25,534 nt of DNA from Rozella allomycis CSF55 (lineage: Eukaryota): assembly GCA_000442015.1 (NCBI GenBank), contig KE561054.1, positions 124,001-149,534 on the forward strand, in the 5' to 3' direction. Positions 1 to 25,534 of this stretch are shown one piece after another. Below the pieces are notes generated by a model. That model saw nothing but the letters and a program-made list of their open reading frames with translations, was not told the DNA's origin and made no database searches. Both the position numbers and the translations under genes were made by a program. Each line of letters begins with the position of its first letter. Position 1 is the stretch's first letter.

Positions 1-842
1 CCGAATAACTTTTTCCCTAGGATTCCAAATCCCAATTTTACAAAACTTGAAAGTGAAGGGGATTCGTCAGGAGGGCCGGTAATGGTGATGAATAGGCCAT
101 TTTTTCTTAACATACCTTTAGACGCTAAATTGTAATATTCACCTCCACCTACACAGTCTACACAGAGGTGGAAAAAGTCCTTTTTAGTTTCCAGTTGTTT
201 TATCAAGTCACCTTTTGTATAATCAACAACAACGTCAATGCCTATATAGTTTTTCATAAATTCTGCATTTCTGGTACTACAAATTCCCCAAATTTGGCCC
301 ACGCCCATCTTTTTCAGGATTTGACATGTAAAGATGCCTACTCCTCCAGAACAACCGATCACGATCACATTCTTTGAAGAATTATTTTTAACTTCAAAGG
401 GATCAAGCCTACCATTGACAACTAGACAGTACCAGGCTGTCGTTCCACAAACACCAATTGTCGCAGCTTGGCTCCATTCAAATTCCTTTGGTTTTTTTCT
501 TACAGAATCTTTATCGACGTTTAATTTAACAAACTCTGCTTGTGTGCCATCACTTTCCGGTGAATGAAGTTTTCCATACACTTCATCTCCAACTTCAAAT
601 TCAGTGACACCTTCTCCCTTGGCTACAATAACACCAGCATAATCTAAGCCAAGAGTATGAGGGAGAGATATTTTCAAGTATGTTTTCATGTAACCTCCTG
701 CCACCTTCCAATCTACTGGGTTAATTGATGAAGCAATAACCCTCACTATTATCTCTTTGCCATGTGTTATCTTAGGTTCTTCTCTATCCAAAACTTTGAT
801 ATTGCCATCCATTGCATAATGGCTTGCCACGACTGCCTTCAT
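1..842 (-). CDS. NADPH:quinone oxidoreductase / zinc-binding dehydrogenase-like (MDR superfamily), 3'-truncated by the window edge
   Basis: Not in the ORF track. Manual translation from ATG 842 gives MKAVVASHYAMDG...IIVRVIASSINPVDWK...LPHTLGLDYAGVIVAKGEGVTEFEVGDEVYG...VIVIGCSGGVGIF, with the MDR motifs INPVD and G.D.AG and a Rossmann GxSGGVG. The frame is open to position 1. Confidence 0.9.
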   Translation of the reverse strand, partial: MKAVVASHYAMDGNIKVLDREEPKITHGKEIIVRVIASSINPVDWKVAGGYMKTYLKISLPHTLGLDYAGVIVAKGEGVTEFEVGDEVYGKLHSPESDGTQAEFVKLNVDKDSVRKKPKEFEWSQAATIGVCGTTAWYCLVVNGRLDPFEVKNNSSKNVIVIGCSGGVGIFTCQILKKMGVGQIWGICSTRNAEFMKNYIGIDVVVDYTKGDLIKQLETKKDFFHLCVDCVGGGEYYNLASKGMLRKNGLFITITGPPDESPSLSSFVKLGFGILGKKLF

Positions 843-1054
843 TGCTTTTATTGTGCAAAATTAACTTAATTAAGAAATCTTGAATATCAATAATACAATA
901 TCGAAACTTTGCTATTCAAATTTTTAGTTTTGGTATTAAGTATAGTTACTTGAAGGATAATAGATAATATTTGATAATATTTGGCGGCTCCTATAATGTT
1001 AATATTCGCAATGTAAACTATTCTCATTAAAAATGTTTTAACCAATTTTATTCT

Positions 1055-1971
1055 TTAAACTGTGTTTATCTGAGAATTTGTTTCAAAAATATAACCGTTG
1101 CCTTTGTAGCTCGCCACAGGTAAAAGCCACAGTAGGGGACGATTACCGAAAACCTTTCAAAGGTATAATAAGAGTTTTACTTGAAGAAAATTTTCTCTAT
1201 TTCCTAGATCAAAAACGTTTGCACCGGATGATGTAAATCCAAATCTACTCTTCTCCATACTCTCTATCGTCGTTTTGTTTTTAAGTATTAGTTGCAAATG
1301 GTAAATAAGCAGAATAAATACCGTAAGACCGAAAAGTCCGCTCCCTAAAATACAGAACATCCATTGGAGATTATCGGTATCCCAGTTTTTAGATAGGTCC
1401 CTTGAAACATCTGCTATAGCAGGTGCGAGGACAATTAAAATGCTCAAACAGTACAATGACAAATACCAGAGAAACAAAATAAAAAATTTGTAATTCTTGA
1501 ATCCAACACAATTATTTACCCATGGGCAGTGGTGGTCCATTTTCAAAACACACTTTTTACAAACAGAGCAATGGTGGCACCTGTCTGGTTTAGGAGCATC
1601 GCACTTTCTGCAATATCTTTCTTTTCCATTTTCTTTTCTAGTAATACTTGGTGGGTTTCCAGTCGGAGCAAAATCCATACTTGATGATGATGGACACCCG
1701 GGATTCACGAAACAAGTTTTTAAATAGGAAACAATTAAAAGAACAAATAAAATATGGTAAAATATGACGAAAATGTAAGCATTTGTCTTTTGGACTGCTT
1801 CTGGAAGCCAGTGTTTCGCTGTTGTTAAATATTATGTTAAATCATACCACAGTAGGAAAAAATAATAACATAGTAGCTCCAAAGTATTAGAGAAATCGCT
1901 ATTAAAAAAGGAATCGCATTTGCAATGATTGAAAAGACTTTTGCGCCTCGTTCAAAACTGTGGCTGGCCAT
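1055..1971 (-). CDS. DHHC palmitoyltransferase (Pfa3/ZDHHC2-like)
   Basis: Contains C..C...KPDRCHHCSVCKKCVLKMDHHCPWVNNCVG and the TTxE motif (TTIES), plus TM helices. GT-AG introns 1819-1847 (29 nt) and 1154-1180 (27 nt) restore one frame from MASHSF to ...QINTV*. Confidence 0.93.
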
Positions 1972-2223
1972 GACAGTCGGGGTGGAGAACAAAAAATAGA
2001 AGATAAGACTCACCCGCTATACAGATATATGTTTTTCCTAATTATTAAATTTAACTAGTTAACGATACTTTTCTTCCTATTCTATGATTAATCGTATTTA
2101 CTTAATATATGATGCCATAAATCACTTTTCGTCTGATTTTTTTTAAAACATATTAAAATTTATATTAATAATTTTATANATATATGTCTGATAGAATTCT
2201 TAAAACATATAATAATTTTTTAT

Positions 2224-3608
2224 TTATTTCTTTTTGGGTGCGGTCACGTTAAATTTAAAGTAAATGATGTCTCCATCTTCTATCACATGATCCTTGCCTT
2301 TTTGGAGATACTTTCCAGCAGCTTTGACTTGAGCTTCTGATCCTAAATCCTTCAAGTCTTGATATTTCATGATTTCAGCCATAATAAATCCCCTTTCGAA
2401 ATCAGTATGAATAACCCCTGCTGCCTGAGGCGCCTTGGTTCCTTTTCTTATTGTCCATGCGCGAACTTCATCTGCTCCTGCAGTGAAAAAATAGATTAGT
2501 TGCAAAGAAGAATACCCGGTTACAATAATCCTATATTACAATCGAAATTCTAAAATATACTTTGGAAGGGCGCTTGTAGTGTTTAATTCTTTCAAATATT
2601 GCTCTTTTTCGTCTGGAGTGGACTGTGAGAGTAAAAGCTCCAAGGAACAAGAAAAGGGAATCAAAGTATCGCCAGGGGTGTTTTCGTCAATCCATTGTTT
2701 AATTTTAGGCAACCAAATATGTGACTATAATTAAAAATCTTACCATTTGTTCTTTTTACGAGCATAGTCAGTTTCAGAGATATTGGCCAAATAAGTTACA
2801 GTCTTTGCAGTGAGAAGCAAAAGGGAATTGATAATGTCAATTTCCTTGCCATTCCAGTCACCGTGACGAACGTCTTTTTTCTCTTCGCTGACCCATTTAT
2901 AAACCAATAATTTATTAATTGAAATTAAAATTACTTTTTCCACGGTTTCTAGCTCAAAGACCTTTTCTTTGTTTTTTTCCTGACCACGAATGCCCTTTTT
3001 GAGCGATTCATATTTATTTTTTAAAAATTCTTCATCTTTCAGTCGAAGTTCTTCATGAATGATGCTGAGGTCACGAACAGGGTCAACTTCTCCTTCGACA
3101 TGAACGACATTTGGCTCTGAGAAAGCCCTCACTACATGGAATATACCGTCCACAGCACGAATCTAGTAATTAATAAAAAAAACTTGATCCTACATTGGAC
3201 AAAAAGGCATTTCCAAGACCCGCTCCACTGGCAGCACCCTTAACCAGTCCAGCGATGTCGATGACCGTCAAGTAAGCAGGAACCTAAAATTATGAATATG
3301 TGCAATTACTTTTGACGCTGGCTTATACGTGTCACAAAGCCAATCAAATCTTGCATCAGGAACTGCAACTCTACTCTCCTCCGGATCTATCAATAATATA
3401 TTGTAAATATAATACCTATTGTACAAAATGGGTAATTCTCAGCGGCAACAGCAGAGTTTGTAAGAGCATTAAAAAACGATGATTTACAATTACCAGCAAC
3501 AAATGATACTTACCCAACATTTGGCAATCCTACTATGCCTATTTTCAAGTTATTTGATGGTCGCCCTAATAAAGGCTTTTCAGGCGTGGTTGATGTCTTC
3601 TTTACCAT
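2224..3608 (-). CDS. OLA1: Obg-like ATPase OLA1/YchF
   Basis: Motifs [42 protein letters not shown] and the TGS domain (EVRAWTI...[17 protein letters not shown]). GT-AG introns: 3387-3415, 3284-3309, 3163-3193, 2531-2560. Apparent GT-TG introns: 3487-3513, 2905-2934, 2714-2743. An upstream in-frame ATG lies at 3746. Confidence 0.95.
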
Positions 3609-3639
3609 TTTTTTACTTGCGAAGCCACGCTCTCCTTGG

Positions 3640-4097
3640 ATGAAAACCAGTTTGCGAATACGAGATCGAAAAGGTTTGGGCAGAATTGACGTTGAGAAAC
3701 TGGAGTTTGACCCTTTCGAAGCTAATGAAACTATTGGTGAAAACATTAGCCCTTCTGTGTATGAGGCGCTGCCATCATCCGTAAAAGGAATTTAAATGTT
3801 TGAATAGTAGTATCTTTTGCATTGCATACATGAAGCAACATCATTACACATCGAGGAACCCGAAAGTTATTTTTCAATGGATCCAACTGCTTTGATGGCT
3901 GCCGGTAATATTCTCAATACCAAAACAAGAAGGAATTCTGGTTCAAGAGTTGTTAAGGAGCGAAATATCATCCATGAAGGAAAATTGTAAAATAGGTAGT
4001 TAAATTAAATTTACCGACATCAGTTTTAAACGAGAGTGAAGACGCATTCTTTCAAGACCACATTCGAACACCAAATGAGCAAAGTTCAGAAGAATGA
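3640..4097 (+). CDS. Small spliced gene, Rrn10-like (RNA polymerase I upstream activation factor subunit)
   Basis: Exons 3640-3780, 3811-3904, 3933-3995 and 4024-4097 are joined by 28-30 nt GT-AG introns. The product contains ...EALPSSYLLHCIHEATS...YFSMDPTALMAAGILVQE..., resembling the Rrn10 pattern LPDSDLL..IH...DETAL.A.GIL.EE recalled from memory. Start codon is uncertain. Confidence 0.6.
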
Positions 4098-4214
4098 TAT
4101 TATATTAGTTCTTAAGGTTGGTGTTTAATTGAATGTCGGCATCCATTAAAAAAATAAACTTTTTTGCTCTGTTTGCCTGGGCAAGCCACTATAACCCTTG
4201 TCGGATTTTTTTCA

Positions 4215-4732
4215 ATGGTATGAATTTGAACTTTTCGTGTTTTATTATTCTTATATGTTTCGAATAGATATAATAATTACAGAATTTAATTTCTAGGTTT
4301 ATAATCGCTTTATTGAAGTTGGCCGTGTAGTCCTTGTTAACTATGGTCCAGATGCTGGAAAACTTGCTGTTATCAGCGAAATTATTGATCATAACAGAGT
4401 AAGCGCAATTATTAAGTAAAATACAGGCTATTGTCGATGGTCCAACTACCGGTGTTGCACGTCAACAATTATCTTTTCGCCGACTTGCTGTTACACCATT
4501 TAAAGTTTCAGTTCCACGTGGAAGTCGTTCAAAGACAATCAAAAAAGTTTTTGAAGCTGAAAAAATCGCTGAAAAATGGGAAACCACTTCCTGGGCAAAG
4601 AAATTAGCCGTTAGAGAAAAGAGAGCAGCCATGTCTGACTTTGATCGTTTCAAGGCTATGTTACTCAAGAAGCAACGCCGCGCTGTTGTTGGAAAGGAAT
4701 ATGGAAAATTGAAAAAAGCTGCCAAATTATAA
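4215..4732 (+). CDS. RPL14: 60S ribosomal protein L14 (eL14), 136 aa
   Basis: ATG, then a 79-nt intron (4218-4296), then [34 protein letters not shown], intron 4399-4426, then AIVDGP...SWAKKL...[10 protein letters not shown]... Confidence 0.95.
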
Positions 4733-4814
4733 TAAAATTCATTTCCATTGACACTTGTACTGTTTCTATTTCTAGTTTATTTTACGGCGATTCTTGTTGC
4801 TGGTGGCGCATTTC

Positions 4815-5220
4815 ATGAAAGTAAAGAAAAAGGATTTGAAACGGCAAGAACGCAAAGAAAATTTATTAAAAAGTAAAAGTTATGAAGTTTTTTGAAAAAA
4901 GATCTATACTCTAGGCCTAAAAATGAAAAAAGATGCAAGGCATTTGAATTAGATGATATAAAAAAGGAAGTTTTACTTAATGAAAAGGTTTTAGCATTGT
5001 CGAATGATTTTCACAAAGAAAAGGTTTCAAATAACCAGAAGAGACCAAAGACATCAAAAGGAAGGATTTCTACGTTGTATGGAGATTTTTTTCTTTTAAA
5101 TCTAGACACAAAGAGAAGAAACAGATAAATAATGTACTGAATTTTCCATTATTCCAGAAAGACCCAACTTCTGCTCTAAAGGAACATCTCAAAAACTTAG
5201 TTGAAACTAAACGAATTTAG
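4815..5220 (+). CDS. Slx9/FAM207A-like ribosome biogenesis protein
   Basis: Lys-rich N-terminus. GT-AG introns 4873-4901 and 5077-5105. The C-terminus KEKKQINNVLNFPLFQKDPTSALKEHLKN fits the Slx9 pattern VL..P.F..DP..A...HL.N. Confidence 0.65.
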
Positions 5221-5411
5221 TCAATTACGAAATGGTTTATTTGGATATTAACATGACTCAATAAAGGTGCTTCAGATTTTTTCAGTTACTCTGAAATAAT
5301 TCGGGATAACGTTATATAATATTATTGATAAAGCAATGAAATTATAAAAAATTTTGTGAACTATTTTATTGTTATCACAGTTAAGCCTGATTTAGCAAAA
5401 TTCCAGAATTC

Positions 5412-8023
5412 ATGGATTTTGTTTCTGCCTTACAAAACACGTTAGAAATATTTAGCAATGATCCCAGACCTTACCAAGAGGTTATCTATGATATCCTAAA
5501 CAGGGCAGATTGCTTGAACATAATCTTTTTGTGTTTTCAAGTAATATTGTGCAACCAAGATATATAGAATCGAGACCTTCATTTTACAGGATGCAAACTA
5601 TTAGAAATGCAACTCGTTAAATTAAATTATCAGGATAATATTGAAGATTTTGTCGAGACAATTTGGGCTACAATGGTGGAACAAATGTTCACTGCTAGAG
5701 ACGTTAGAAAAATATCAAAATGGGTAAACGAAATGATTTAGTCGCAAAGAGTGTTTGTATCGCACTTAAAAATGAATGGACTTTTCTTGATAGAATGTTT
5801 ATGTTCGCGGAAAGACAATCGCATTTTCAGTTCATATCTTTGTTTGTCATTGAATGTCTTCGAAATTGTACAGATCAATTTTTAATTTCTTCCTTTGTCA
5901 TTCAAAATTCAAAGTTTGGTGGTGATTGGAAAAATCATTTGGTGGAGAATCTTCCTAAATGCATGGATTTCTTAAAGCAATGTATAATTAATCTACAATT
6001 CTGCGAAGAATGTATGGAAGTCTATGGAGAATGGATAACATATAGTAGGTCTTTAGAGTAATTTGAATTCGATGCTCTAATAAGTGAACTAGTTGAGTAC
6101 ATTAAATTTGTACTTCCTCTATTAAGTAACACACTGTACTTTAAGATGGCATGTGAATGTATCAACCAGGGAGTTCTTGCCAGCCACCATTATAAGAGTC
6201 AAGAAAGCTTTATTTTTCTTGCTTCGAATTTAATTGAATTGTCTAATATGCTAAATGACGAAAATGATTTTTATTCATTCTCAAAGCTACTGGTCAATTA
6301 TGGCAGTACGTTTCCAAACACGTTTTTAACACATGAGCGCCTTATTCATTTACTTTTATCATTGACAACTCGAAATAGTATTTCTTATGATTTAAATATG
6401 TTGTATTTTCCGTGCTGGATTGATCTTGCGTACCATTGTAGCGAGAACGATCGGTTTAAAACAACACTTGAAAAGTGTGTGGAGGCAATGCTACCAAATT
6501 TGATCCATAAAATTTTATACGCTGAATATTCAACAAAGGACGATAAGGATGCCTTTGAATCATTTAGAAATGAAGTATCAGACCTCCTAATTGAATTTTA
6601 CAATTTTGGTTTTCTTAATTTAAGTTTTCTAGATTTAGTAATTACAGACAGTTGCTCCTGGAGGACACAGGAATTATTTTTTTATTTATCTTCGCAATTT
6701 ATTGCTAATGTTAAAGAAATTGATAGTCGTAATATCGTTTTCAGAGGCTTACATAACCTGCCATGTATTAATGATAACCAAATTTTATCAAAGAGTGTAT
6801 TTCGATTTATTGATGAAATTTGCCGCTCGGGTACTTTGGATCTTTTCCCAGATTTTCCTATGCTACCTTTATTGGAATACACTTTAAGCCAATTGAACAC
6901 AATTTCGAAGTTACGCAAAACAATAATTGGCATGTGCTGCAAAATAAATGCTTTGGAGATAAAAGTTTCTCCCGAATTTTTTTCCAATGTTTTGAAACAA
7001 TTTAAACCGAATGAAAATGTAGAGAATAAGTGCGTACTTTGCTCGATTATTGTAATATTGGGTCAGCATGATCAGAAATTTATTGAAAAGTTACTAAATC
7101 TTATCGATGAAGAAGGATGCGTATCTTTTCAATACAAATACTTCATGTCTGTTATAACGCATGTTACAGAGCCTGTAATTATTGAAGCCTTAAGACCACG
7201 TGCTAACAAAGTAATTTCAGCACTGATTGAATACCAATTACTAGAAGAGGCATTCAATTTCATCCCTATTGCTTTAGAAAAAAGTTGCGTTAATTTAAGT
7301 CCTGTCATGAACTTTCTTCATGAAGTTTTATCTAGTGACAAAGACTCTGCCACGATTGAATGTTGCATTAATTGCATGGAAAAGCTTCTTGTTATTGATA
7401 ATGCGCAATCTAGGTCAATTCTAGATCTTTGTCTATTTCGTCTGAAACATTTTGGTGCGACAATGTCAAATCAACCTGAGAATGTTGATTTAATATATGC
7501 GCTAATGAAAAAAGTAATATATTTTCTTTAGTGACAACTGTGCATTTCAGGTATGGCCGAGCTACCGACATCAATTGAAGACGTTGCCACCTTCACCCTA
7601 AATTTTTTATCCATTAAGAATAGAATATGCCTTGAAAAAGTTTGCTCCTTTTTGGTAGAAGATTATGCATGATAATTTTTAGGAATACATTTTAAAGCGG
7701 AAAAGTTTTTCCTTTTGTTCTATTGGATATCCAGTAACAGAGTTGTACACCAATCTATTTATCACCCCACTTCCGAAATCTTATTTGGAGGTTTTATTCC
7801 ACTTGGCGTTCCATATTAAGCGCCATTACCCACAGGAATTTATATTTTCCTTTAATAGTCTATTTAAAAATATGATTGAGAATAAATCCTTGAAAGCGAA
7901 TATTAAATTGCTACTTGAAAATGTTAACCGGTAAATATATCCCATTTATGCTTTACTGGAAGTGCTAGGAATATTAAGGAATTCAAAGACGCTTCATTTA
8001 ATATGTTAAATGCTTTAAAATAA
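5412..8023 (+). CDS. Large alpha-helical (ARM/HEAT-like) protein, possibly a divergent importin-beta family member
   Basis: ORF fragments join through GT-AG introns 5541-5567, 5724-5749, 6058-6084, 7655-7682 and 7931-7962, plus 7514-7540 (GT-TG). Leu-rich helical sequence with a 'SWRTQELFFY' segment like importin-13/transportin-SR W...E. The family call is tentative. Confidence 0.55.
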
Positions 8024-8208
8024 ATCATTTATTGACAAGTACACTAGGTTTATCTTTTAAATTTTATGAACGCTAGCAGTTTTTTAGATACATAAATGTT
8101 TTATTGATCAATTTAATCATTAGCAGAATATCAGTAAAGATTGATTATTTGTATCACTGAAAAACTTTAATCTTGCTGCTCCAACTTTTGGAAATTCCAG
8201 ATCCAAAC

Positions 8209-10715
8209 ATGAATAGCGAATTGACGCCATTGAATATAACTGAAATAGTCTCCGATGTCTTAATCAGTCTTTCTTATTTCGCAATACCATTGGAGATTTT
8301 CTATTTCCAAAAACTACTACCAAATCCATTCAAGTACAGAATTGTCATTTGGCTCTTTGAAATGTTTATTTTTGCTTGCGGAACAACACATTTTGTTGGA
8401 AGTTTTAAATTTTCTTATAACGTCGCTTCTATAATGGTTTTGACTAAGGTCTTGACAGCAATAGTTTCGTTCATAACGGCTATTCTACTTATCCGAGTTT
8501 TTCCGTTAGCGTTTTCACTGCAAAACAGAAATATGAAGTTGGAGGAAGAAATAGGGCTCAGGGAAGAAAATGAAAGAGAATTGATAAAAGCAAACGCTTC
8601 ATTGTTGAGATTTCGTAGGATAGTTAATAGAATTAGAAGTTCCCTGGATGAAAACATATTGATTGACACCGCAGTGAGAGAAATCCGAAGGGAATTTGCG
8701 GCTGATGTGTGTTTGATCGCACAAAAGGATTCCTTGGCAGTGGCTGAGGGGACTTTCAAAGTCAGGGGTATTTCATTCAAAACCCTTAAAGGGTCTATCG
8801 ATACATTATCATTAAACAGTTTAAACGAAAATAAAGATGCCAGTTTTATGAACAAGGATGAAATAAGAGGAATTTTCGGACTGGACACTTCTGTGAAGAG
8901 TGGCTTATTCATTAGATTGAAAGATTCTCAGAATTGTGAATTGGGGATTATGTTCTTATTAAATTATTGTTATGTTAATAAATTTGATGAGATTGAGATG
9001 GAATTATTGCATGAAGTGGCCATACAAATTAGCATTGCTCTTGACCAAGCTATTTCAATTGAAAAGGAGCGGCAAAGTGTAGAAAATTTAAAGAAAGAAT
9101 TTCAAAGAAATGAATTGCTAAATAAAGAAAAGAACGCGGCTGAAATGACAAGCAAAATGACCGCCGACTTTCTAGCCACAATGTCCCATGAAATACGGTA
9201 AATAAAAGTAAAATAAAACAATTTAGGACGCCTTTAAATGCCATAATAGGATTTGGAAATATTCTGCAGCAACAATCCTTAACAGAAGAGCAGCAGGAAA
9301 TTTTGGAAATGATAACTTCGAGTAGCAACCTTTTATTAAATCTGATCAATGATATTTTGGATTACTCAAAAATTGAAAGTGGCTTTTTGTCTTTGGAAGA
9401 TAAAGAATTTTCACTAGTGTCCTCCGTTGAGAGAGTTATTATGCTCAATTCCCAACATTCCTTTTCAAAGAACATTCAATTGAACATGTTTATTGACCCT
9501 TCCGTTCCAATTATGATAAATGGAGATGAAACAAGGTTGAAGCAAGTTTTAAATAATTTTATTAACAATGCCATCAAATTTACAGACACTGGAGAGGTTA
9601 TCGTGACTATCGCCACCACTGAAGATTACTTTAAATTTTACGATTTTTCGGAATGGAAAGAGTTTCATGTTTTGGCGGCAAACAACCATAACGTTCCAAG
9701 ATTGTACTTTAGAATTATTGACACAGGTATTGGAATCGCAGAAGAATCACTCCCAAATTTATTTCAGAAATTTAAACAAGTAGATTCCTCAATCACTAGG
9801 AGGTTTGGGGGTACTGGACTAGGCTTAGCAATTTCATTTAAATTAGTAGAGATTTTCCATGGGTCTCTCTCTGTTTCTAGTCTAGTCGGCAAAGGCTCTG
9901 CTTTCTCTTTTTCAATATCATTAGGATCAAACCCTGGTAAAAAATGGACTGAAAACCCCGCCTTTTCTAAAAAATTTTCAGTTGCAATTGTATCGCCCAT
10001 ATTAAGAACTCGCCAATCAATTGAACATATTTTAACTTGCCTTGAATACCCATTTAAATCGTTTTCTAGTATATCTGAATATTCAAAGTCTACCGATACA
10101 TATCGCATTGTGCTTGTGGATGAAACAGTATCTGAATCACACCTAGATAATATTACCATTCCTGAGAATTGCATGCTCCTTGTCAACAGTTCGTCTACCA
10201 TCCCTGTAACATTCAAACAAAGATTTGTCGCATGTTTAACAAAACCTTTGCGGTACACAAATATTATAAAGATATTTTCTTCAATTAATAATGGAAATTC
10301 AATATCCCTGGACAAGGCAGCTCATTTATCTAGATCTTCTCTCTTTGAAAAGAAGCTGCATATATTGGTGGTTGATGACAATGCAATTAACAGAAAAGTA
10401 ATAGCAAAACTCTTGGAATCTATTCTTTGCCCTCAAATTGATTTTGCTGAAGATGGCGCAGTCGCTGTAAAATTGGCGCTTTCGAAATCTTACGATATCG
10501 TCTTCATGGATGTTTCAATGCCCGTTATGGATGGATTGACAGCTACGCGACTAATCAAAAAAGAAAAGAAGGTGTTTATCGTCGCAATGACAGCCAATGC
10601 CCTCTATCAGGAACGCCTCTTATGCATGGAATCTGGAATGGATGACTACCTTGCAAAGCCCGTTTCACGAGATGACGTTATATCTCTTCTTGAAAGATTT
10701 TTGAAAAGACTCTAA
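8209..10715 (+). CDS. Ethylene-receptor-like (ETR1-type) hybrid histidine kinase: 3-TM ethylene-binding domain, GAF, HisKA, HATPase, receiver
   Basis: N-terminus SDVLISLSYFAIPLEIFYF...FIFACGTTHF matches the ETR1 SDFFIAIAYFSIPLELIYF...CGATH pattern. H-box SHEIRTPLN spans intron 9198-9226. N, G1, F and G2 boxes are present (NNAIKFT, DTGIGI, LFQKF, GGTGLGL). Receiver motifs VVDDN, FMDVSMPVMDG and KP. Confidence 0.93.
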
Positions 10716-10765
10716 TATTGATGGTAATAAATTATGATCCATAAACAATTTATTCTAATTAATGA

Positions 10766-11707
10766 CTACCTAGCGTTAAGCAAAGACAATATATCTAAAT
10801 GCAGCTCTTTCTTCGCTAATTGTTTACACTTCTCTTTACACTTTCTTAGATCAATCCGCCAATCGTCAAGAAGCAGCTTGACAACTTCACAATGTCCTGC
10901 CTTACAAGAATTTATCAGGCACGATGAAAATGACGCATTTGGATTTACTCGAACATCGCTTAAAAGAATTTCGACAACCTTGGCATGTCCAGCTTGACAT
11001 GCCCATCGTATCGCCGCATTGTTTTCTGCTGTAGGATCAACCCTCTTGTCAGAAATTAAATATTTAACAATTTCATCATGACCAAAACTTGAAGCCCACT
11101 TTATTGCATGATTATCAAAAACGGCCGGATCTACTTTGTCAGTAGAAACTAAATATTCTACAAGGTCAAAATTGCCATTTTCGCAGGCAATCACAAATGA
11201 ATCTTTACAAAAAGATTCGTCGACAGCAAACAAGAGCATTAAATTTGGGATATAATCCGCATGTTTAGATATACTCATAACTGCTTCATGGACTTGCTCG
11301 CGATTGTAAAATGATGGGTATTTCAAAATTGCATTTAAAGCTACATAATTACACTTGAACATTTCAATCAAATTAATTTCAGTACAACTAAAGCAAAACG
11401 ATTTGTGTTTGACCAAGACTTCTATACAATCAGTCCAATGGCATTTAAGAGCCATAATAAGGGCTTTATTGTTTAATATTGACACATTCATATGTTTTAA
11501 AAGTAAAATAAAATGCAGCATTTTAATGTTTTTGTTGTTGATACAATGAAACAGCGCAAAACACTGATCCAATAGTGGGTCGTGCGCGAAATTAAAATTT
11601 GCTAGAATATTTCTGTGAATAATTGCAAAATTCAGAGAACTTTTAAAGTCTAGTTGTGAAAATATTTTAAAATATATGTCTGGGTGTAAATCGCACACCT
11701 TTGTCAT
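10766..11707 (-). CDS. Ankyrin-repeat protein with N-terminal F-box-like segment
   Basis: Intronless 313 aa ORF. Starts CDLHPDIYFKIFSQLD (F-box-like) and carries repeats DPAVFDNHAIKWASSFGHDEIVKYLISD and DPTAENNAAIRWACQAGHAKVVEILLSD. Confidence 0.85.
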   Translation of the reverse strand: MTKVCDLHPDIYFKIFSQLDFKSSLNFAIIHRNILANFNFAHDPLLDQCFALFHCINNKNIKMLHFILLLKHMNVSILNNKALIMALKCHWTDCIEVLVKHKSFCFSCTEINLIEMFKCNYVALNAILKYPSFYNREQVHEAVMSISKHADYIPNLMLLFAVDESFCKDSFVIACENGNFDLVEYLVSTDKVDPAVFDNHAIKWASSFGHDEIVKYLISDKRVDPTAENNAAIRWACQAGHAKVVEILLSDVRVNPNASFSSCLINSCKAGHCEVVKLLLDDWRIDLRKCKEKCKQLAKKELHLDILSLLNAR

Positions 11708-11823
11708 GAAAACTTAAAAGTGAAAATCGGGAACGGAAATTTAAAGTTTAGATTAGAGATTGAGCATTAGCTTTCATGCCTATTAAAGGGAAAGACGCTT
11801 TTGGAATGATTTGAGTTTTTGGG

Positions 11824-12521
11824 ATGAATGCTGGAAGAGCGTCGAGAAGAAGATACTCCACGGGTTCATTTTTAGGACCACACGAAGATGTTAAACGAGA
11901 AGAGAATAAAGACAAATCAAACGATGATTCTGATGTAAATGCATTTCAAGTCCCTAAGAATATATGTTTTCTGTGCGGGGGGAAAGGGCATTGGGCAAGA
12001 GAAGTATTTATTTATGCTATATGTGACATAGTGTACTTCATTGCCTAAACCATTTCAAAATGAAAATTCTCCTACATGTTACAAATGCGGGGGTAAAGGT
12101 AAACTTTCATTTTATGAAGTAGAGGTCATTTTGCTCGCACCTGCGCGAGTGGATCTTTAAAGAAGGCAAGATCTATGTGGGCAAGATATCAAGGATTGCA
12201 TATCGGAGAGTCCACGGAAAGCAATTATCCCAATATATCATTTGATTATGCTTACGATCAATACCAACCCCACATTTGTGTTGGGGGAACCACGTACTTT
12301 TACGATCCATTCATTCCTAAATTCAAGGAGGAGGAGGGTTAGTTAANTGTGATACAATTGAAGAGATTCGCACAGACAATGAAGGCGATAACACATCGGA
12401 ATTATCTTCTGGTAACGGAGAAAATAATATTACTGGGGACAACAACGTACTGAATGAGTCAAATTGTAACTTTAGAAATGAAAATGATATTTTTCTTGCA
12501 TATTTAATAAATTATTTTTAA
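11824..12521 (+). CDS. CCHC zinc-knuckle nucleic-acid-binding protein (two knuckles)
   Basis: CFLCGGKGHWAREC and CYKCGGKGHFARTC appear after removing introns 12004-12031 and 12099-12124. A third intron at 12338-12363 is inferred. The 3' end is less certain. Confidence 0.75.
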
Positions 12522-12577
12522 TTAAATCTGTTTGGTGAAATGGCCACTGTTTTGGATTTGAGAATTTTCTGTTAATA

Positions 12578-14974
12578 ATGGACTTTCCTTTTCTTTACAG
12601 AGTAGCACAAAAACTAGAGAAAAGTGGAGTTTGGAAGCAATATTTACCTCAAAATTTTGAAGAACTGCTCAGCTCGAGTGTGGAGAGTTTGGATCGATTC
12701 AAGGAATTTCTCCTAGAGCCAATAACGAATGATTTTCTGGTCAAAGATTATGCTAGATTCAAAATATCGTCTATGATTCACGAACAACTTATATATGAAT
12801 TATTTCCTGAATGTCCTGATAAATGGAAAAGAATGAGTGATGCAAAAAGTGTTGAAGAAGATTTTGCGATAATCGTTGATGATATGTACTATACATTAGA
12901 AGATGACATAAATGACATTGAAAATGATTTTAAAAAAGACCACGTAAACGTTTTAATTAAATTCGATCATAGATGGAGAAAGATAGTAATGAGGAGGCTA
13001 GGAAATTGAACTTTAGATTGGGGGCTGAGACTCCAGTCAATGATAATGAAAACATGATTGGATTAAAATATTTGTTAGCTGAAATTGATAGAAATCATAC
13101 TGGCAAATCCAGCAGAGAATTAAAAACACTACTTTTAGAAGTTCGCCCTAATAGATCAAAATGGGCGAATGAAGGGAAGGTTGGACAAGAAGAGCTATAC
13201 GATACCTGCGAAAAAGTTTTAGCTCAATTAAAACTCTACACACCCCACGTCACCCCCTTTCTAAACAAAGTGAGTAAAAAAGATGCTCCGGACTATTATG
13301 ACGTTATAAAAAACCCTATGGATTTAGGAACCATGGCACGAAAGTTAAAATCATTCGAATATCAAAGCAAAAGTGAGTTTGCTTCAGACTTGAACTTGAT
13401 TTACACAAATTGCATCCAATACAATTCATCCCCTGTAATAAAATAGTATAGTGAAAACAAAAGGATAGCATTTATCGTATCCATGCTACGAAATTAAAAG
13501 AAAAATATGAGGAGCTGCTCAAATTTGTTCCAGATATAGAAATCAAAGACAGAGATGACTTGGAGGAAGATGAAAGCGAAAGTAAGATTTTATTGACGAG
13601 TGAAACAGTTGTGTCAGTTGTAGACGACGGTCAATTTTCAAAATTTCCGGATTTACCTGATCAGCCATCGATTGGTGATGAAGACTTGGCTTTTGAGGAT
13701 ATGGACAATGAACCTTTAAATATCAATGAAATTCTTGATCCTTCCATGCCACTTTTGCAGGATATACAAGAAATTAAATTCAAATCGGTTTCATTCGAAA
13801 TACGCACGAATTACTTATTGAATAGAAAGACCCTGGTTTCCAACAGAAAGTCCGAATTTTCAAGAAATATGATAAGCCCGCCCTTAAATTCAGAGTTTAA
13901 CTTTTTTCCTGAATTTCAATTTATTTCTGGATGCATTCCGGACTCATTATGTTTTCCTTATCATAGCATTCGAATGAGTCGTGAAAATTTGGATTCCTTT
14001 GAAGAAAGACCTAGATATTCCAACTTTCGATCTGCTCTGCCTAATTCAAAAGCTTTGGAACAAATATGTTCCACTATTAAATCATTACAAAACATTCGAA
14101 ATCTATGCGATCAAATGGAACTTTTGCCAGATAATACACTTGTTCCAAGGCAATACTCAATGCCATCATATACACCTCAATTCGAAGAGCTTTATCAAAG
14201 TGATATAACAAACCACCTATGCAAATCACTGCTAGAGTTAAATTTGAATTGCCTCTTGACATTTCATGGCTTTGAAGGCGTCCAAACCAATGCTCTCTTT
14301 CTACTTTCAGACATTTTTGTTTCACTATTTTCAGATCTTGCAAGAACATTAAAAACCTATTTTGAAGTTTATTCAAAGTCGAAAACTCTCCAAGTAATAA
14401 AAATGGCTAGACGAGAAAGGAAATTTTGCAATTGAGTCTTAACGCGACATTTAACCTGAAATTAAAAGACATTGCAGAATACATCTGCGATTTTTACGTT
14501 TCATATCCAGCCACGTTAGATGATCTGGAGAATAAACTTTCGTCGACGTTTGACAAAATATTTCACCCAGAGACATTTGATTTTACTTTAAATGAAGAAG
14601 ATTTTATTTCTGGGAACTTTGCTGAATTGGCTGGGATTGACATTTTTGGTTTGAGGGATTTGGGTATTGATGCAACTTCAATACCAGAGTCCTTGTTTAA
14701 CCCCTCTAGAAAAAAGTCATCAAAACGATTAATAGATTCGTAAAAAGATTTTTAATATCTAATAGCAATACCCCCAATAAGACCTTCAAACCACATCATC
14801 AATTGCCGTCATTATCAGAAACAACTTTCATCGGTCTTTTAGCGCCTATTGTTAATGAAAAAACTAAGAATAATGCTTTAGTTGATGTAAGGTTAAATCA
14901 ATTAATTACTATAGGAACATTTGTCACATACTAAAGCAATTAAACCAAGGCCAGTAAAAAAGTCTAAAAAATAA
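12578..14974 (+). CDS. SPT7: SAGA complex subunit Spt7 (bromodomain + histone fold)
   Basis: RSKWANEGKVGQEELYDTCEKVL precedes a bromodomain (PFLNKVSKKDAPDYYDVIKNPMDLGTM...NCIQYN). Also a histone-fold region (HGFEGVQTNALFLLSD) and DIFGLRDLGI. Introns 12944-12972, 13435-13463, 14394-14419, 14740-14765, 14887-14914, and possibly in-frame 13582-13608. Confidence 0.88.
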
Positions 14975-15087
14975 ATTAAAAATTTTGTACGTAATGATCA
15001 CTGTATACTCATAAATGTATAATTGTACCCACAATAGTTCTGGATAAGACAAGTTCGATTAAAGTTAACCTTGAGATTGGATATCAA

Positions 15088-15160
15088 GGGCTCATAGCTC
15101 AGTTGGTAGAGCGCACGCTTTGCATGTGTGAGGCCCCGAGTTCAAACCTCGGTGAGTCCA
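15088..15160 (+). tRNA. tRNA-Ala(TGC)
   Basis: 73 nt cloverleaf. Acceptor GGGCTCA/TGAGTCC has the G3:U70 Ala identity pair. D arm GCTC-AGTTGGTA-GAGC, anticodon arm CACGC-TTTGCAT-GTGTG, T loop GTTCAAAC. An oligo-T Pol III terminator follows. Confidence 0.97.
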
Positions 15161-15341
15161 ATTTTTTTTGGTTCTCAATTTTCTAATTTGATGCGAACCA
15201 ATGATCTCGATATCCCTAATCTGTTTTATTTTCAATAAAATTTAATACAGAGCTTTTAAAACACTTATTTTTAAGCGAATTCGACGGTTGACCGATTTAT
15301 TGTGAAATATATTGGAAATTGTGTTAACTGTTATTGTCCAC

Positions 15342-16007
15342 ATGGAAGCGAAAAGACCAACAATTGAATTTTTCTTTGACATTCTTAGCGCATATTCCTA
15401 CATTGGCTTTGAAACACTACTTTCTTTAGATTGGGAAGTCAACATTGCACTTAAACCATTCCTACTGTTTAAAGTAAGCAAGGAATCTGGTAACATACCA
15501 CCGGCGATGATTAAATCAAAAAGATCATTTGTTTTAAGAGACCTGCAAAGACAAGCAGGCCACTGTGGAATCAAATTCTGTGTGCCCAAGAGATTTCCTA
15601 TTAACACCATTCCAATTATGCGATTCTTGGTACTGTTAAATGAAACAAATCGCATAGCAGCCTTCAAGGCCACAAAGGTACTTTTCAACTTATATTGGGG
15701 ATGTGGATTTGATGTATCAATATTTGCCAATGTCGTTGAAAAGCTTGCTTACGAAACTGGGTTTTCGAAAGATGAGTTGGCTGGTATGTACAAAAAATCT
15801 AACGAAGATGAAAATTACTTACAAATCCTAGATAAGAATTGCGCAGAAGCACTTGATGCAGGTGCATTCGGTGCTCCAACAATGCTGGTTAAGCTTACTT
15901 CCGCCAGTCATAAAGAATTTTTCTTTGGAAGCGATAGATTCCATCACATACAAGAATATTTGGAATCGGAACAGCCCGCTTTGATTCCCTCAAAGTCAAA
16001 ACTTTAA
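15342..16007 (+). CDS. GSTK1: Glutathione S-transferase kappa (DsbA-like/HCCA isomerase family) with C-terminal SKL
   Basis: Motifs IEFFFDILSAYSYIGFE, SGNIPP, GAFGAPTM and FFGSDRF. Protein ends ...SKL*. Confidence 0.9.
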   Translation: MEAKRPTIEFFFDILSAYSYIGFETLLSLDWEVNIALKPFLLFKVSKESGNIPPAMIKSKRSFVLRDLQRQAGHCGIKFCVPKRFPINTIPIMRFLVLLNETNRIAAFKATKVLFNLYWGCGFDVSIFANVVEKLAYETGFSKDELAGMYKKSNEDENYLQILDKNCAEALDAGAFGAPTMLVKLTSASHKEFFFGSDRFHHIQEYLESEQPALIPSKSKL

Positions 16008-16297
16008 TAAATCCATGTGAATCTTCTAAATGTATTCCTCAAGTCTCAACCATATAATACTTTTATATTTAACTTTGAGGCGGGATGTGATTAACAAACC
16101 CCGCCTTTAATGGGGTTTGAAAAATGAAGCTGAGCCCAAAACCAATTGAGCAAAAGGCCTTAGCTTTAGTGGACTGATATTGCACATAACGTATCCTAAT
16201 CCTTGATAATATTCTACAAAAATTTTTTTTGAAAAAGTCAAAGATTTATTCATGTCAGTAAAAATCGATATTACCCTTTTTCATATTTTCCGGTTTT

Positions 16298-16714
16298 ATG
16301 TTTGACTTTGATGACTATTTTTCAAGGCAAAATAAAAGACATGACTGGTACAACTATGCGACAATTCCAGAACCTGCTGACACATTAGTTAACGATCTGG
16401 GTAGAAGTATATTTGTATTTTCAAAGGGCACGGATCACTAATGCGTGAGCATTTTAGTGATACACGTAGATCAGAATCTTTAGTATATAGATTGTTGAAA
16501 AGAAATAAAAAGCAGCCACTGGAGCTTTTGGGTGAAGCGAAAACTAGTTTAGATCAAAAGTATGGTACGTTTGTTCCACTATAATATTAATACAGAAGTA
16601 AAGAAAGCTGAGTTTGATGGAAATTTGAAAAGAGAAATAGAAGAAGAATTGAATTTGTTTGATGACCATTTTTTTCAACAGTTGGAAAATAATTTCATGA
16701 AACTTTGCCAGTGA
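16298..16714 (+). CDS. Hypothetical protein (~119 aa), acidic/helical
   Basis: Exons 16298-16400, 16427-16564 and 16596-16714 are joined by 26 and 31 nt GT-AG introns into an open frame MFDFDDYFSRQ...NNFMKLCQ*. No family recognised. Confidence 0.5.
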
Positions 16715-16878
16715 AACAAGTTCCAAGTGTTTTTTGAGATTAATAAATTTAAAAAGATATTTTTAGATGAATAAAGTAAAAAAAATTTGAGATGAAGTTA
16801 TAAACCATCAAAAATCTTAGACCTTAATGTGAATAGTATTATATTGAATTAATATATCAGTATTGAACTAATTACTCA

Positions 16879-18257
16879 TTAGATATTTATTGTGTTGGCT
16901 AAACTTAAGATTTCACTACGGGAATATTTAGCTCCATTTTCTATTTCTTTTCGATGTATTCGTATTGCAGATTCCCAATTAACATAGTTATTTATTGGCA
17001 ACATGTCGTGCTTAGATTCATGATCTAATTGTTTATCCATGTCCTCCAATATTGCGTCTGCAGTAATATTGGCATCCATCTATGATTACCAGAACTAATT
17101 ATTTTACCATAGTAGATGCCAAAACTCCGCTTGGTCCTCTTTTGGCCCAACCAGCAGAGTAAAGCATGCAATGGCTGTCATTTGTCAATAATTTTCCAGT
17201 TGGATGAGTGATTTTGGAATTTTCTATAAGAGTGTCGATATTTTCTTGTGCGTAACCGATGCTACTAATGATTAAATCAGTCTCAATGTGTTCATGCTCA
17301 CCAGATGGGACTAATATATCATTTTGATTCCTATATTTGCCTACACTCATAGTTAAATGTTCATTCATTTTATGAACACATTTTGGGACCCTCATGAATT
17401 TAAATTCTAATGTTTTCTTTTTGATATTGCTAGCATCACTGGCCGAACTTAGAAGAAGATCTACGACTCTCTTTTTTGATTTTGACAATACGCTTGGTTC
17501 TGGATATATTTCTCTCTTATTTAATTTTATCTGAACATCATTGATGTTTGTAATTTCACGAATTTCTTTTGCTGTAAACTGAACCTACGAAATACTCAAA
17601 TGGTTTTTGTTACGTCATAAATAGACTTTCGTCCAATGATTAAAACTGTATTTATGGAATTGGAAAGATTTTCCAAGAATCCTTTATTAATATCCGTATT
17701 CTCTAATTCAGATTTAGGTTTCAGGAGCATTCTGGCAATGTCTAATGCTACATTACCATTTCCAATTATTGTGACGTGTTTAATTTTCGAAATTTTTTGG
17801 ATTAATTCAACATTATTTTTATCATTCGGCTCCGTGTTGTACAAAGCGACAAAGTCGACGGAAGTTACGATGTGTTCACTCCCATGGATGTGCAATTTGT
17901 TAGCCCCAGTCGCACCACTTGCCAAAAGAATAGAATTATATCGTTCGCATAATCTTTTTAACGGGATGTGTGTTTGATGAGAGAGAGGCTTCCTTAAATC
18001 ACCAATCAACACGTTTCCATAAAAATTCTTTAGGCTTTTACCGATTTCAATAAACTTTGACATGCAAGCCTTTCTATTCATTTTAATTAAGATACCTTCA
18101 CTTCTGGATGGTCTGGGGCGACACCATATTTTACCAGGCCAAATGGCAAAGGATGGCGTTCGAACATATCAATATGTATAGGAAATTTGGCCTTTTTAAT
18201 TAGTCTTTGAATACAGTAAAATGCTGCTGGTCCGCTTCCAACAACGGCGAGTCGCAT
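16879..18257 (-). CDS. ARH1: NADPH:adrenodoxin (ferredoxin) oxidoreductase
   Basis: Motifs MRLAVVGSGPAAFY, PFGLVKYGVAPDHPEVK, IIGNGNVALDIARML and GWAKRGPSGVLASTM. Introns 18070-18095, 17585-17613, 17080-17107. Confidence 0.93.
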
Positions 18258-18315
18258 TGATCAGTAAATTTCAAAAATCCAAACAACCTTCAGTATTGCC
18301 GCAACAAACACCAAT

Positions 18316-18851
18316 ATGGCGCAAACCAAAACTCCAGAAATTACTTCGACTCAAAAGTTTTTGCAAGCGGAACAAGAACTATATGAACTGGTATGCAGGA
18401 AGAAACAGGTCGACTTAAACTTGGCTCAACTTGAAACTCAATTATATCATTTTGAAAACACATATCTTGAAGATACAGCGCTAACAGGAAATGTTATAAA
18501 AGGCTTTGATGGCTATCTAGGCTTAAGGTCAGAGAAAAGACGAGGCATCAGAGATAGCGATAGATTATTCTCTAATTCTTCTGTAACATACCCAAAAGTA
18601 AGCCACTAAGATTATTTTTAAAGGCTTTAGCAATGCACTCAGAGACAGCGGTTACAGTGGAAAGGCCTTATTCTCCTGCAAATGATGTCCCGACTAGTTC
18701 AGGCGATGAAGCAGTAAGAAAAAGAAGAAGAAGAAAATCAAATTTCAAGGCAAGCATCGAAGACAATGAAGACTCTGATGATGAAGAATTTAAGGTTGGT
18801 CGAAAGAACATGACTACATCCGCTGTGTCCGACGAAGAAACAATCAATTAA
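18316..18851 (+). CDS. EAF6: NuA4/NuA3 histone acetyltransferase subunit Eaf6
   Basis: LAQLETQLYHFENTYLEDT..GNVIKGFDGY...DRLFSNSSVT. Intron 18598-18623. Confidence 0.9.
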
Positions 18852-18915
18852 TCGTTTCCCCTATTAATAAATTAATAAGAAATCGTTTATTTATTGAAAT
18901 GTAAGTTTTAATTAC

Positions 18916-19559
18916 TCAACCAATCATGCTTCGCTTCCTTCCCCGCAATCTTACTTCTTCCAACTTTATTACTATGCTCTCTGGGTTTGAAACCTTTTTA
19001 AAATAACTGGAGATAATTGTTTCAAAAAAGTCTTTGTCGTTAGGATGAGAGCTATCGAATGCGCGTTCAAGAACGTAAAGGTCTACAGCCTTGTCTTCGG
19101 CCAAGGAAGATATATATCCCAATCCAAAATCGATGAAGACCTATTTGAATATTATTGTGATTTTACAATTTCATTGGAAGAATTTTCTACCAATATATTT
19201 GAAGTGGTTAAGTCACCGTGAATTATGTCACAAGAATGTAACTTTGCAATAGATTCTCCAATGCTTTCAGCTAAATATGCATGACTGCTTATACACGATT
19301 TAAGTGGCCTCCCAGAAATATGTTCCATTGCTAATATACTTTCCTGTGTATCAACCCAGTACAAAACAGGTGTTCTTACGTCACATGACGCAGCCTTGAC
19401 TAATAGCTTTGCCTCCTGTGATAATCTTGACTTTGTAATGTTTTGATCTAAAATATGATGTCTATAATTTTTAGATTCTCTCTTCTTTAATATTATCTTA
19501 TCGAAATTCTTGAAACTTTGAGTAAAAGTCGACGCTTCAGCACCTTGGGAAATCAGCAT
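18916..19559 (-). CDS. BUD32: KEOPS complex kinase Bud32/TP53RK
   Basis: QGAEA, KNYRH..LD, IIHGDLTTSNIL, intron 19141-19166, then IDFGLG, EDKAVDLYVLERAF and VRLRGRKRSMIG*. Confidence 0.95.
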
Positions 19560-19575
19560 CCTGGAAAAATCTTAA

Positions 19576-19974
19576 ATGAAAATTCTACATGATCGGGTAG
19601 TGTTTCTTTCAGATGCCGAGGTTTATGATCATTTGAAATACGTTAGTAAAACTAAATGTTCTGTTGTATATGAAGTAATTTCTTATGACTGGGATTTTAG
19701 ACACAAATGTTTTTTGAAAAATGTAATATTGAAGTCACAAGGCTCTCTAAAGAGAAAATTTTAAGAATAAATGAAACCTTGAAAGCTTTCAACTTAACGC
19801 CTGCAGAAAAACTTCAAATATTTAACATGTTGCCAACATCTATGGTTGAATTGATATGCGTAATAATATTCCAGTAATTTCAATAAGATTATAGAAGAAT
19901 GCGAAGAACGCTTCCAGCCCAATGATTTACAGGAAATAATCGACGCTATTACTGAGGTCAAAAATGTTGAATAA
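19576..19974 (+). CDS. RPC17: RNA polymerase III subunit C17 (CRCP, Rpb4 family)
   Basis: MKIL.....LSDAEVYDHL at the start. After introns 19675-19700 and 19860-19887 it reads LTPAEKLQIFNMLPTSMVELICIIEECEERF. Confidence 0.88.
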
Positions 19975-20157
19975 ATTTTGAAATTTGATTTGAGTTTCCA
20001 ACTTTTATAATTTATACTATTCTTTTCCACTATATTTTAAAATTTAACTTCAACTTTTCTGCCCTTGGCCCATAGAAGTCAGAACGAACAGATTGATCTG
20101 ATTAACCCGTCAAGATGGCATAAATTAGTCGAATTACCAGTTTAAAATCTCGTCATC

Positions 20158-24723: not shown

Positions 24724-25534
24724 ATGGACAGAAGCCAGCAAGTTCTCCTAAATGTATAACATTTTATTAATGTAAATATAGCAAGTAGATAAATGGCTTC
24801 ATGAAAATAACATTTTGCTGAATGTCAGCTGCCTTGAAGAAGCCAATGAACTGTACCGGTTTTCAAAGATTAACCACTTTGCAGAGGAAAAATCAAAAAT
24901 GGCTATTGAATTCTACGATATTCTATCCCGATCTTTAGAACACCAAAGTACATGTGTTAAATGATTGTGTGACCAGAACATTTGGATTCTCAAATTCTCG
25001 ATAGTCTACCATTAGAAAGATTTTTAACGGCCAAGGCGGATAAAATTTTGCATATTCTTATTGATATTTCTGTGTCATTGCAGTTGGAAGAACTGGAACT
25101 TAATGACATGATTATTGGCATAACAAAACTAATCAACGAGGAGTCACGATTGCGAAAAATTTGTGATGAACAAAAAATTATGCGGATGGATGTCAAAGAA
25201 ATTGCTGAAAAAAGAATGCAATCCTCAAAAAATAAACAGTACAGTAAAACATTGATTAATAATGATATACTGCCCAAATGAGCGAAAATACATCCAAAGA
25301 GATTCAGAAGTCTTTAGAATGGACTCACTGGAATTCCATAATGAATGCAAAGAGAGAAGAATACAAAAACAGACTACAAGAACTCTCTACTATATACAAT
25401 GGCTCAGATGTTGAGGAACAAGAGCTACGATATCCCTTGATGCAAAGATTAGTTCATAATTTTGAAAATTTCGAGAAAATGCACCGAGAAAAACAGTCAG
25501 AGCTTATGGCGGTTAAAGACCTTCCCCCGGTAAA
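24724..25534 (+). CDS. HAUS1-like augmin subunit, 3'-truncated by the window edge
   Basis: QVDKWL near the N-terminus, FLTAKADKILHILIDISVSL, AKREEYKNRL and terminal DLPP follow the order of HAUS1 motifs recalled from memory. Introns 24754-24781 and 24948-24976, plus a third near 25244-25272. Confidence 0.6.

Follow-up and report, generated by a model that had tools for sequence, protein, structure and literature searches.

The AG at the 3′ end of an intron is among the most invariant signals of eukaryotic genes, and the TG ends that have been published are either infrequent options next to an AG or mistakes made by mutant spliceosomes. In human U2-type introns, TG 3′ splice sites amount to about 0.02%, are always alternative and are tied to a neighbouring AG, and the Discussion of the same study reports having met no TG acceptor that is used constitutively (Szafranski et al. 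2007, PMC2374985). In yeast without Prp18, UG, CG and GG ends and branch-proximal ends are activated, and deletion of the conserved Prp18 loop leads to more use of non-AG 3′ splice sites; Prp18 is cited in that paper as a ruler of the minimum distance from branch to 3′ splice site, and its Discussion adds that substrates with short spacing may not need the protein (Roy et al. 2023, PMC10711555). Yarrowia lipolytica carries a fused branch point-3′ splice site with a mean of one base between the two motifs, and TG ends are not reported in the available passages (Mekouar et al. 2010, PMC2911113). The introns of Rozella itself are described in print as about 30 nt long with weak motifs (PMC6349667) and as present at 2.5 per kb (PMC8476143). 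Neither GT-TG nor Rozella occurs in the available main text of a cross-kingdom survey (PMC7072748). We found no report of TG-ended Rozella introns in the literature searched, which was mostly that open without subscription; the supplements of PMC7072748 and PMC8476143 could list Rozella splice-site counts.

The window analysed here is a stretch of 25,534 nt from Rozella allomycis CSF55 (contig KE561054.1, positions 124,001 to 149,534). Homology places an OLA1 gene on its minus strand, with the following features in window coordinates.

2224..3608, minus strand: OLA1/YchF-type Obg-like ATPase gene, 7 introns, by homology
3487..3513, minus strand: intron 1, 27 nt, GT...TG, inside the P-loop GLPNVG/KS, required
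3387..3415, minus strand: intron 2, 29 nt, GT-AG
3284..3309, minus strand: intron 3, 26 nt, GT-AG
3163..3193, minus strand: intron 4, 31 nt, GT-AG
2905..2934, minus strand: intron 5, 30 nt, GT...TG, in frame and stop-free
2714..2743, minus strand: intron 6, 30 nt, GT...TG, phase 2
2714..2715, minus strand: TG acceptor of intron 6, within TTG, with T at -3 as in most AG introns here
2725..2727, minus strand: internal TAG of intron 6, ending at +19, skipped in the GT-TG reading
2531..2560, minus strand: intron 7, 30 nt, GT-AG, which skips an internal TAG at +11

Removal of all seven introns of 26-31 nt leaves 393 codons plus TAA with no internal stop. Four of the introns end in AG (introns 2, 3, 4 and 7) and three in TG (introns 1, 5 and 6). 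On the minus strand, 2743-2714 reads AAATG/GTAAGATTTTTAATTATAGTCACATATTTG/GTTGCCT, and the donor is GTAAGATT; GTAAG is the donor consensus of this organism. Introns of the U12 type have an RTATCCTT donor and an extended CCTTAAC branch site. Intron 6 has neither this donor nor a CCTTAAC-like branch site, and at its 3′ end the AG of a U2-type intron is replaced by TTG. The first-pass annotation had predicted that retention would give TAA, and the retained intron indeed reads TGG TAA followed by two further in-frame stops; the frameshift that it expected from the internal AG is also found, because excising 19 nt, up to the TAG that ends at +19 (2725), puts the sequence out of frame. The 30-nt GT-TG cut restores the conserved stretch, as claimed, in the form KKNKWLPK, and the alignment to homologs that had been suggested as a check shows the spliced stretch contiguous in 99/119 non-Rozella homologs. 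Stop read-through or a UAR=Gln code was considered and rejected on the three in-frame stops, the terminal TAA of the gene and the long stop-free frames under the standard code.

To place the boundary we built a protein profile from 94 of the 119 non-Rozella homologs, namely those of 380-450 aa, and scored every GT/GC/AT donor from 2890 to 2700 with every end from 2880 to 2575, which gives 5,347 pairs, 766 of them with an open frame. The 30-nt GT-TG cut ranks 1/5,347 at 725.3 bits, and the best canonical alternatives, a 39-nt GC-AG cut (701.8 bits) and a 75-nt GT-AG cut (666.4 bits), like all others of their kind, lie at least 23 bits lower. By this top score among all donor/end pairs, the GT-TG intron is required for the conserved protein, in line with the original claim. 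Non-canonical cuts close by score nearly as well: an AT...AT cut shifted by 3 nt reaches 722.8 bits (2.5 lower) without the donor consensus, and a 27-nt GT...AT cut reaches 718.8 bits (6.5 lower). The protein score alone thus pins the boundary loosely, to the frame and an approximate length, and the exact end of intron 6 is argued from the donor consensus and the genome statistics instead. Our gene parser gives a posterior of 0.98 for the donor and frame under a neutral acceptor model and of 0.98 for the exact end under the trained model. One sequencing run was matched to window 1-20000 at 80% likeness; its 27 partial contigs all diverge from the stretch and gave no joint across the OLA1 introns, an uninformative outcome. 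Of 60 metagenome loci, two genomic fungal copies were inspected (L127, L130); both lack an intron at the NKW site, and the loci yielded no close relative of Rozella.

The other two TG-ended introns of the gene differ in how strongly the protein calls for them. In intron 1 the GT...TG cut ranks 1/2,624 pairs, the best canonical rival stands at 694.3 bits, 31 bits below, and PN[VA]GKS is unbroken in 98/98 homologs with a P-loop. Intron 5 (2934-2905) is a likely intron but is not required for the frame; the spliced form scores 725.3 and the retained form 710.4 bits, so that read-through costs 15 bits, and retention is a 10-residue insertion missing from 6/6 aligned homologs. The gene parser did not call intron 5. 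Intron 6 is therefore the second required GT-TG intron, as it had been described, but the third TG-ended one in OLA1, because 2934-2905 is a further, stop-free and in-frame, GT-TG candidate.

The frequency of TG ends was estimated with our own gene parser, in which the acceptor dinucleotide was free and which was trained on the same DNA, with homology checks at OLA1 only. The sample covers 868,617 bases, or 7% of the genome (C861 1-710,000, C706 1-90,000, the window and 30 small loci), and its donors have A at +3 in 97-100% and A at +4 in 63-76% of introns. Under a neutral model, with the frequencies of non-AG ends set by intron composition, an in-frame AG was missing at 38 donors (posterior >=0.8) and present at 1,514. 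At these 38 donors TG occurs between +26 and +31 at 22/76 in-frame and 9/152 out-of-frame positions. Because codon phase itself favours in-frame TG (127/1,536 vs 206/6,056 in AG introns), a phase-matched expectation was used; it predicts 5.8 in-frame TG against the 22 seen, a number reached in 0/200,000 simulations. With the window excluded, 18 TG remain at 34 donors. No TG, CG or GG lies in range of 10/38 AG-less donors, which may be parser errors. Once freed, the acceptor frequencies are AG 1,635, TG 45, GG 9, TT 9, CG 8 and AA 1, with AT at 0.0 of about 1,720. TG thus accounts for about 2.6% of sampled introns, which may be low because in-frame cases such as intron 5 are missed. Freed donors are GT 1,634, GC 9.5 (about 0.6%), AT about 1 and others <=3.4, only GC being above noise. 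By trinucleotide, the 28 TG calls divide into TTG 13, ATG 9, CTG 5 and GTG 1. In longer introns TG is scarce from +26 up to the real end (12 seen vs 31.7 expected; for AG, 8 vs 16.1), as expected if it acts there as a cryptic end, although local composition could contribute. We saw no depletion of competing AGs at +24..+33 of TG introns (3/27 vs 254/1,432, p=0.61) and no significant clustering of TG introns by gene (4 pairs within the same gene, 2.4 being expected; P=0.22). Two further candidates in the window come from the parser only, and the genes that hold them have no Pfam matches.

7514..7540, plus strand: GT...TG candidate, 27 nt, internal TAG at +18, parser posterior 0.98
25244..25272, plus strand: weaker GT...TG candidate, 29 nt, parser posterior 0.72

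These frequencies bear on whether intron 6 might be cut at a nearby non-G end, such as the 27-nt GT...AT cut with one Cys added, or at mixed ends with much retention, TG not being dominant. The GT...AT cut has the modal length and is merely 6.5 bits below the top score, and prp18-null yeast also uses HAU ends (PMC10711555), whereas AT ends vanish from the freed model and the added Cys would break NKWL, which is found in 99/119 homologs; we regard this reading as quite unlikely. It is still harder to credit that this OLA1 copy is a null allele or a pseudogene in decay, its acceptors lost and its work done by an OLA1-like gene without introns on C437. That second gene, intact and coding for 400 aa, does exist (L002:583-1785), and three TG ends out of seven introns in one gene are many against a rate of 2.6%. 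Yet the coding part of OLA1 has no stop and no frameshift, is 70-73% identical to its best homologs and has a short branch of 0.19; the C437 copy reaches about 52% identity, on a long branch of 0.65. Moreover, all three TG changes are A-to-T at -2, and in the sample TG (45) is far above the transition products AA (1) and GG (9), with AT donors at about 1. Random decay does not fit this pattern, since it would hit donors too and favour transitions. The preferred reading, a working OLA1 with a UG-ended intron 6, is the one followed below.

The annotation had further supposed that a TG at the typical distance is preferred over an AG too close to the donor. The first half of this fails: 30 nt is atypical, being the length of 59/1,435 confident AG introns and 1/28 TG calls, and the mode is 26-28 nt. 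Confident AG introns of <=40 nt have lengths of 25 (2 introns), 26 (386), 27 (378), 28 (356), 29 (194), 30 (59) and 31 nt (42), so that 1,314/1,435 fall at 26-29 nt and 0 under 25 nt. AGs less than 25 nt from the donor are never candidates, because no confident intron is shorter than that. As to the second half, position does override the AG dinucleotide, but a special contest between TG and a nearby AG is not supported. An AG ends at +19 in 51/1,432 AG introns (3.6%; GA control 3.9%), and internal AGs at +15..+22 are found in 311/1,432 AG introns vs 9/27 TG introns (p=0.16, not significant). Given the length floor, the common internal AGs and the TAG passed in like manner by intron 7, such skipping is routine; that of the +19 TAG is ordinary and adds little by itself. 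Nor does intron 6 resemble the TG-AG tandem of human sites, for the nearest AG, 11 nt upstream, is in the wrong frame and falls short of the 25-nt floor, and the next lies 76 nt downstream of the intron end. From the intron 6 donor there is no AG between +20 and +105, the next being at +106, and TG would be used for want of a reachable AG. Removal in two steps, the first at the +19 AG, was rejected by inspection, as the remaining 11 nt are still without an AG, and a hairpin hiding the TAG was set aside because only weak folds of -4 to -5 kcal/mol appear, computed with no shuffle control.

An adenosine peak suggests how the position of the cut is set. A at +23 is present in 87, 68, 65 and 74% of introns of 26, 27, 28 and 29 nt, compared with ~35% elsewhere; a T bias at +21 precedes it, the peak shifts to +24 in 31-nt introns, and where A+23 is missing, A is more frequent at +24 (51%). 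TG and AG introns share this feature (21/27 vs 1,028/1,432). From this A peak (+22 to +24), the branch point is likely placed from the donor. Intron 6 has C at +23 and A at +22 and +24, and its candidates are the following.

2720..2722, minus strand: candidate branch adenosines of intron 6, A+22 (2722, in T-C-A-C) and A+24 (2720), by the A peak of the genome sample

The likelier reason for the skipping of the +19 TAG would be that it lies upstream of the donor-anchored branch adenosine. The missing A at +23, together with a length at the long end of the TG class, counts against our reading of intron 6.

Public gene models bear on the same site. The two OLA1 proteins nearest to it in the database both carry the name Rozella allomycis CSF55: EPZ33522.1, on the same contig, and RKP21759.1, from a second assembly of the same strain. 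RKP21759.1 has 0 differences over 401 residues from the protein of this assembly, and reads SHIW across the intron 6 site; its residues at the three TG sites are W, C and L, whereas an AG would yield R, S and a stop. Since the Trp codon is the same in RKP21759.1, base 2715 agrees in both assemblies, and with the second assembly identical at the TG sites a miscall is unlikely. That the T at -2 stems from faulty sequencing or consensus calling, or from heterozygosity at the site, is in our view the least credible of the alternatives: local faults or alleles do exist, as scattered single Ns and a 5-nt inversion in Prp18 between the assemblies attest, but the second assembly's protein agrees at all three TG sites and throughout, and errors would not produce TG preferentially where it restores the frame.

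Both public models (3510-3791 and 2224-3608, minus strand) start in another frame and are left without the P-loop; they translate intron 5 and omit the NKW motif, and each departure falls where an AG end is missing. They use the TAG at 2725 as an acceptor joined to an upstream donor, in the 75-nt form. This raises the question of whether the +19 TAG is a real acceptor, with a GT-AG intron at 2799-2725 (75 nt) or a GC-AG intron at 2763-2725 (39 nt). Both cuts keep an open frame and an AG end, the longer has the precedent of EPZ33522.1 and RKP21759.1, and GC donors exist at the low rate given above. The cuts are nevertheless 59 and 23.5 bits lower; the 75-nt cut deletes 18 residues conserved in homologs, while the 39-nt cut has a length class (37-40 nt) with 0/1,435 confident AG introns and a GC donor without the A at +3 that 97-100% of introns have. 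An upstream donor would also leave introns 1 and 5 and the genome-wide TG excess unexplained, and we consider it very unlikely. If intron 6 does end at UG, AG-only gene models are wrong at such TG sites in this key early-diverging genome.

The genome encodes the major spliceosome: U2, U6, Prp8, Slu7, Prp18, Fyv6 and U2AF35 were found. The U2 GTAGTA and U6 ACAGAGA motifs are present. The Prp8 α-finger aligns without gaps to yeast 1558-1630, with Gln kept at the 1594 position (by counting), and U2AF35 retains the CSRKH and CCRQ motifs in an alignment with S. pombe U2AF23. Because the parts inspected look standard, an altered Prp8 α-finger, U2AF35 or U2/U6 was rejected as the cause. Prp18 is intact, at 331 aa, in both assemblies, and in both its loop after WP reads MGVMGPINLNER. 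Among the best 150 of 263 Prp18 matches (149 listed homologs, 146 of them parsed), most read [IM]GVT.VGIH.R, and T4, V6, G7, I8 and H9 are held by 131, 138, 132, 132 and 134 of the 146. The Rozella loop differs at these five near-invariant positions and has one extra residue, a form shared by 0/146 of these parsed homologs. Inspection revealed no alternative splice that would restore the usual loop. The changed loop could explain both the 3-8 nt branch-to-end spacing and the tolerance of UG. That it causes this tolerance is a conjecture we think somewhat less likely than not, the correlation being one in a single species; the loop may simply have drifted, because substrates with short spacing may not need Prp18.

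Two irregularities concern the assemblies of these spliceosome genes. At L003:1631-1645 (C1022), a 5-nt hairpin-loop inversion in Prp18 accounts for the only two residues that differ between assemblies, SF here and ND, the conserved form, in the second; it is either an assembly fault or an allele. In Prp8 (L176, about 840-1500; C706 16,740-17,400), the end of an exon is tandemly duplicated together with the donor, which, with further repeated intron-like pieces, breaks the reading frame in the parse; the duplication is likewise either an assembly fault or real. Single Ns at window 2179 and 12347, scattered likewise through the assembly, may mark uncertain or heterozygous bases.

Taken with the donor consensus and the genome sample, the protein comparison makes it highly probable that 2743-2714 is an ordinary U2-type mini-intron of a working OLA1 in which UG is the only usable 3′ splice site. 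At the level of the DNA, the conserved protein is kept only when intron 6 is removed at its TG end. The Rozella spliceosome would fix the branch adenosine near +23, sometimes +24, from the donor, so that AGs upstream of the branch, the +19 TAG included, would end up inside the lariat. Ligation would then take place at a G a few bases past the branch, normally in AG and in about 1 in 40 cases in UG, with the terminal G kept and pairing with G+1 (pairing as modelled in PMC10711555). A rewritten Prp18 loop may lie behind both the UG tolerance and the very short branch-to-end distance. Put together, Rozella would have a naturally retuned major spliceosome that spans ~23 nt from donor to branch adenosine, can ligate only 3 nt past that adenosine and uses UG constitutively, with no other acceptor, in several hundred introns (an extrapolation from 2.6% in the 7% sample), because its Prp18 loop is rewritten; this full picture we offer as tentative, and rather doubtful as a whole.

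Intron 6 is very probably spliced at UG, and the wider TG-ended trait would be a new form of U2-type splicing. As at human TG sites, intron 6 has a GT donor, a TG end and the major spliceosome, but unlike them its TG is the sole protein-keeping end and the class has a sampled rate of about 2.6% (PMC2374985). S. cerevisiae without Prp18 or its loop similarly keeps the terminal G and relaxes -2 (UUG, AUG, CUG), and branch-proximal ends are favoured in both; its BG ends are error products of a mutant, whereas the Rozella TG would be a normal junction, and Prp18 is absent in the yeast mutant but present with a changed loop in Rozella (PMC10711555). Yarrowia also has its branch point a few bases from the intron end, but its branch motif is strong and coupled to the 3′ end, whereas the Rozella motif is weak (T-R-A) and coupled to the donor (PMC2911113). 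Trichomonas type B (PMC12316389) and Paramecium (PMC12862383) introns share the narrow length range at about 23-28 nt, yet they have GT-AG ends (PMC12316389, PMC12862383), and the Trichomonas branch site is fused to the 3′ motif (PMC12316389). Were the reading true, constitutive UG ends in a P-loop ATPase would mean that a natural spliceosome can do without the -2 adenosine if the place of the cut is set by geometry, and a wild organism would be living with what is in yeast a fidelity mutant.

Several other observations were made in the same DNA. The OLA1-like gene on C437 (L002:583-1785) is intronless and intact, codes for 400 aa, is about 52% identical to its best matches and groups, on a long branch, with four sequences from metagenomes (FastTree support 0.87); introns are absent from only about 10% of the sample's long genes, and the gene is possibly an old paralogue or a transferred copy. 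On the plus strand, window 8161-10715 holds an ethylene-receptor-like hybrid histidine kinase with ETR1_N, weak GAF, HisKA, HATPase_c and receiver domains, interrupted by a single intron of 29 nt. The ribosomal protein L14 gene contains an intron of 79 nt (window 4218-4296, plus strand), the sole long one of 51 introns called in the window, which might be the carrier of a small RNA.
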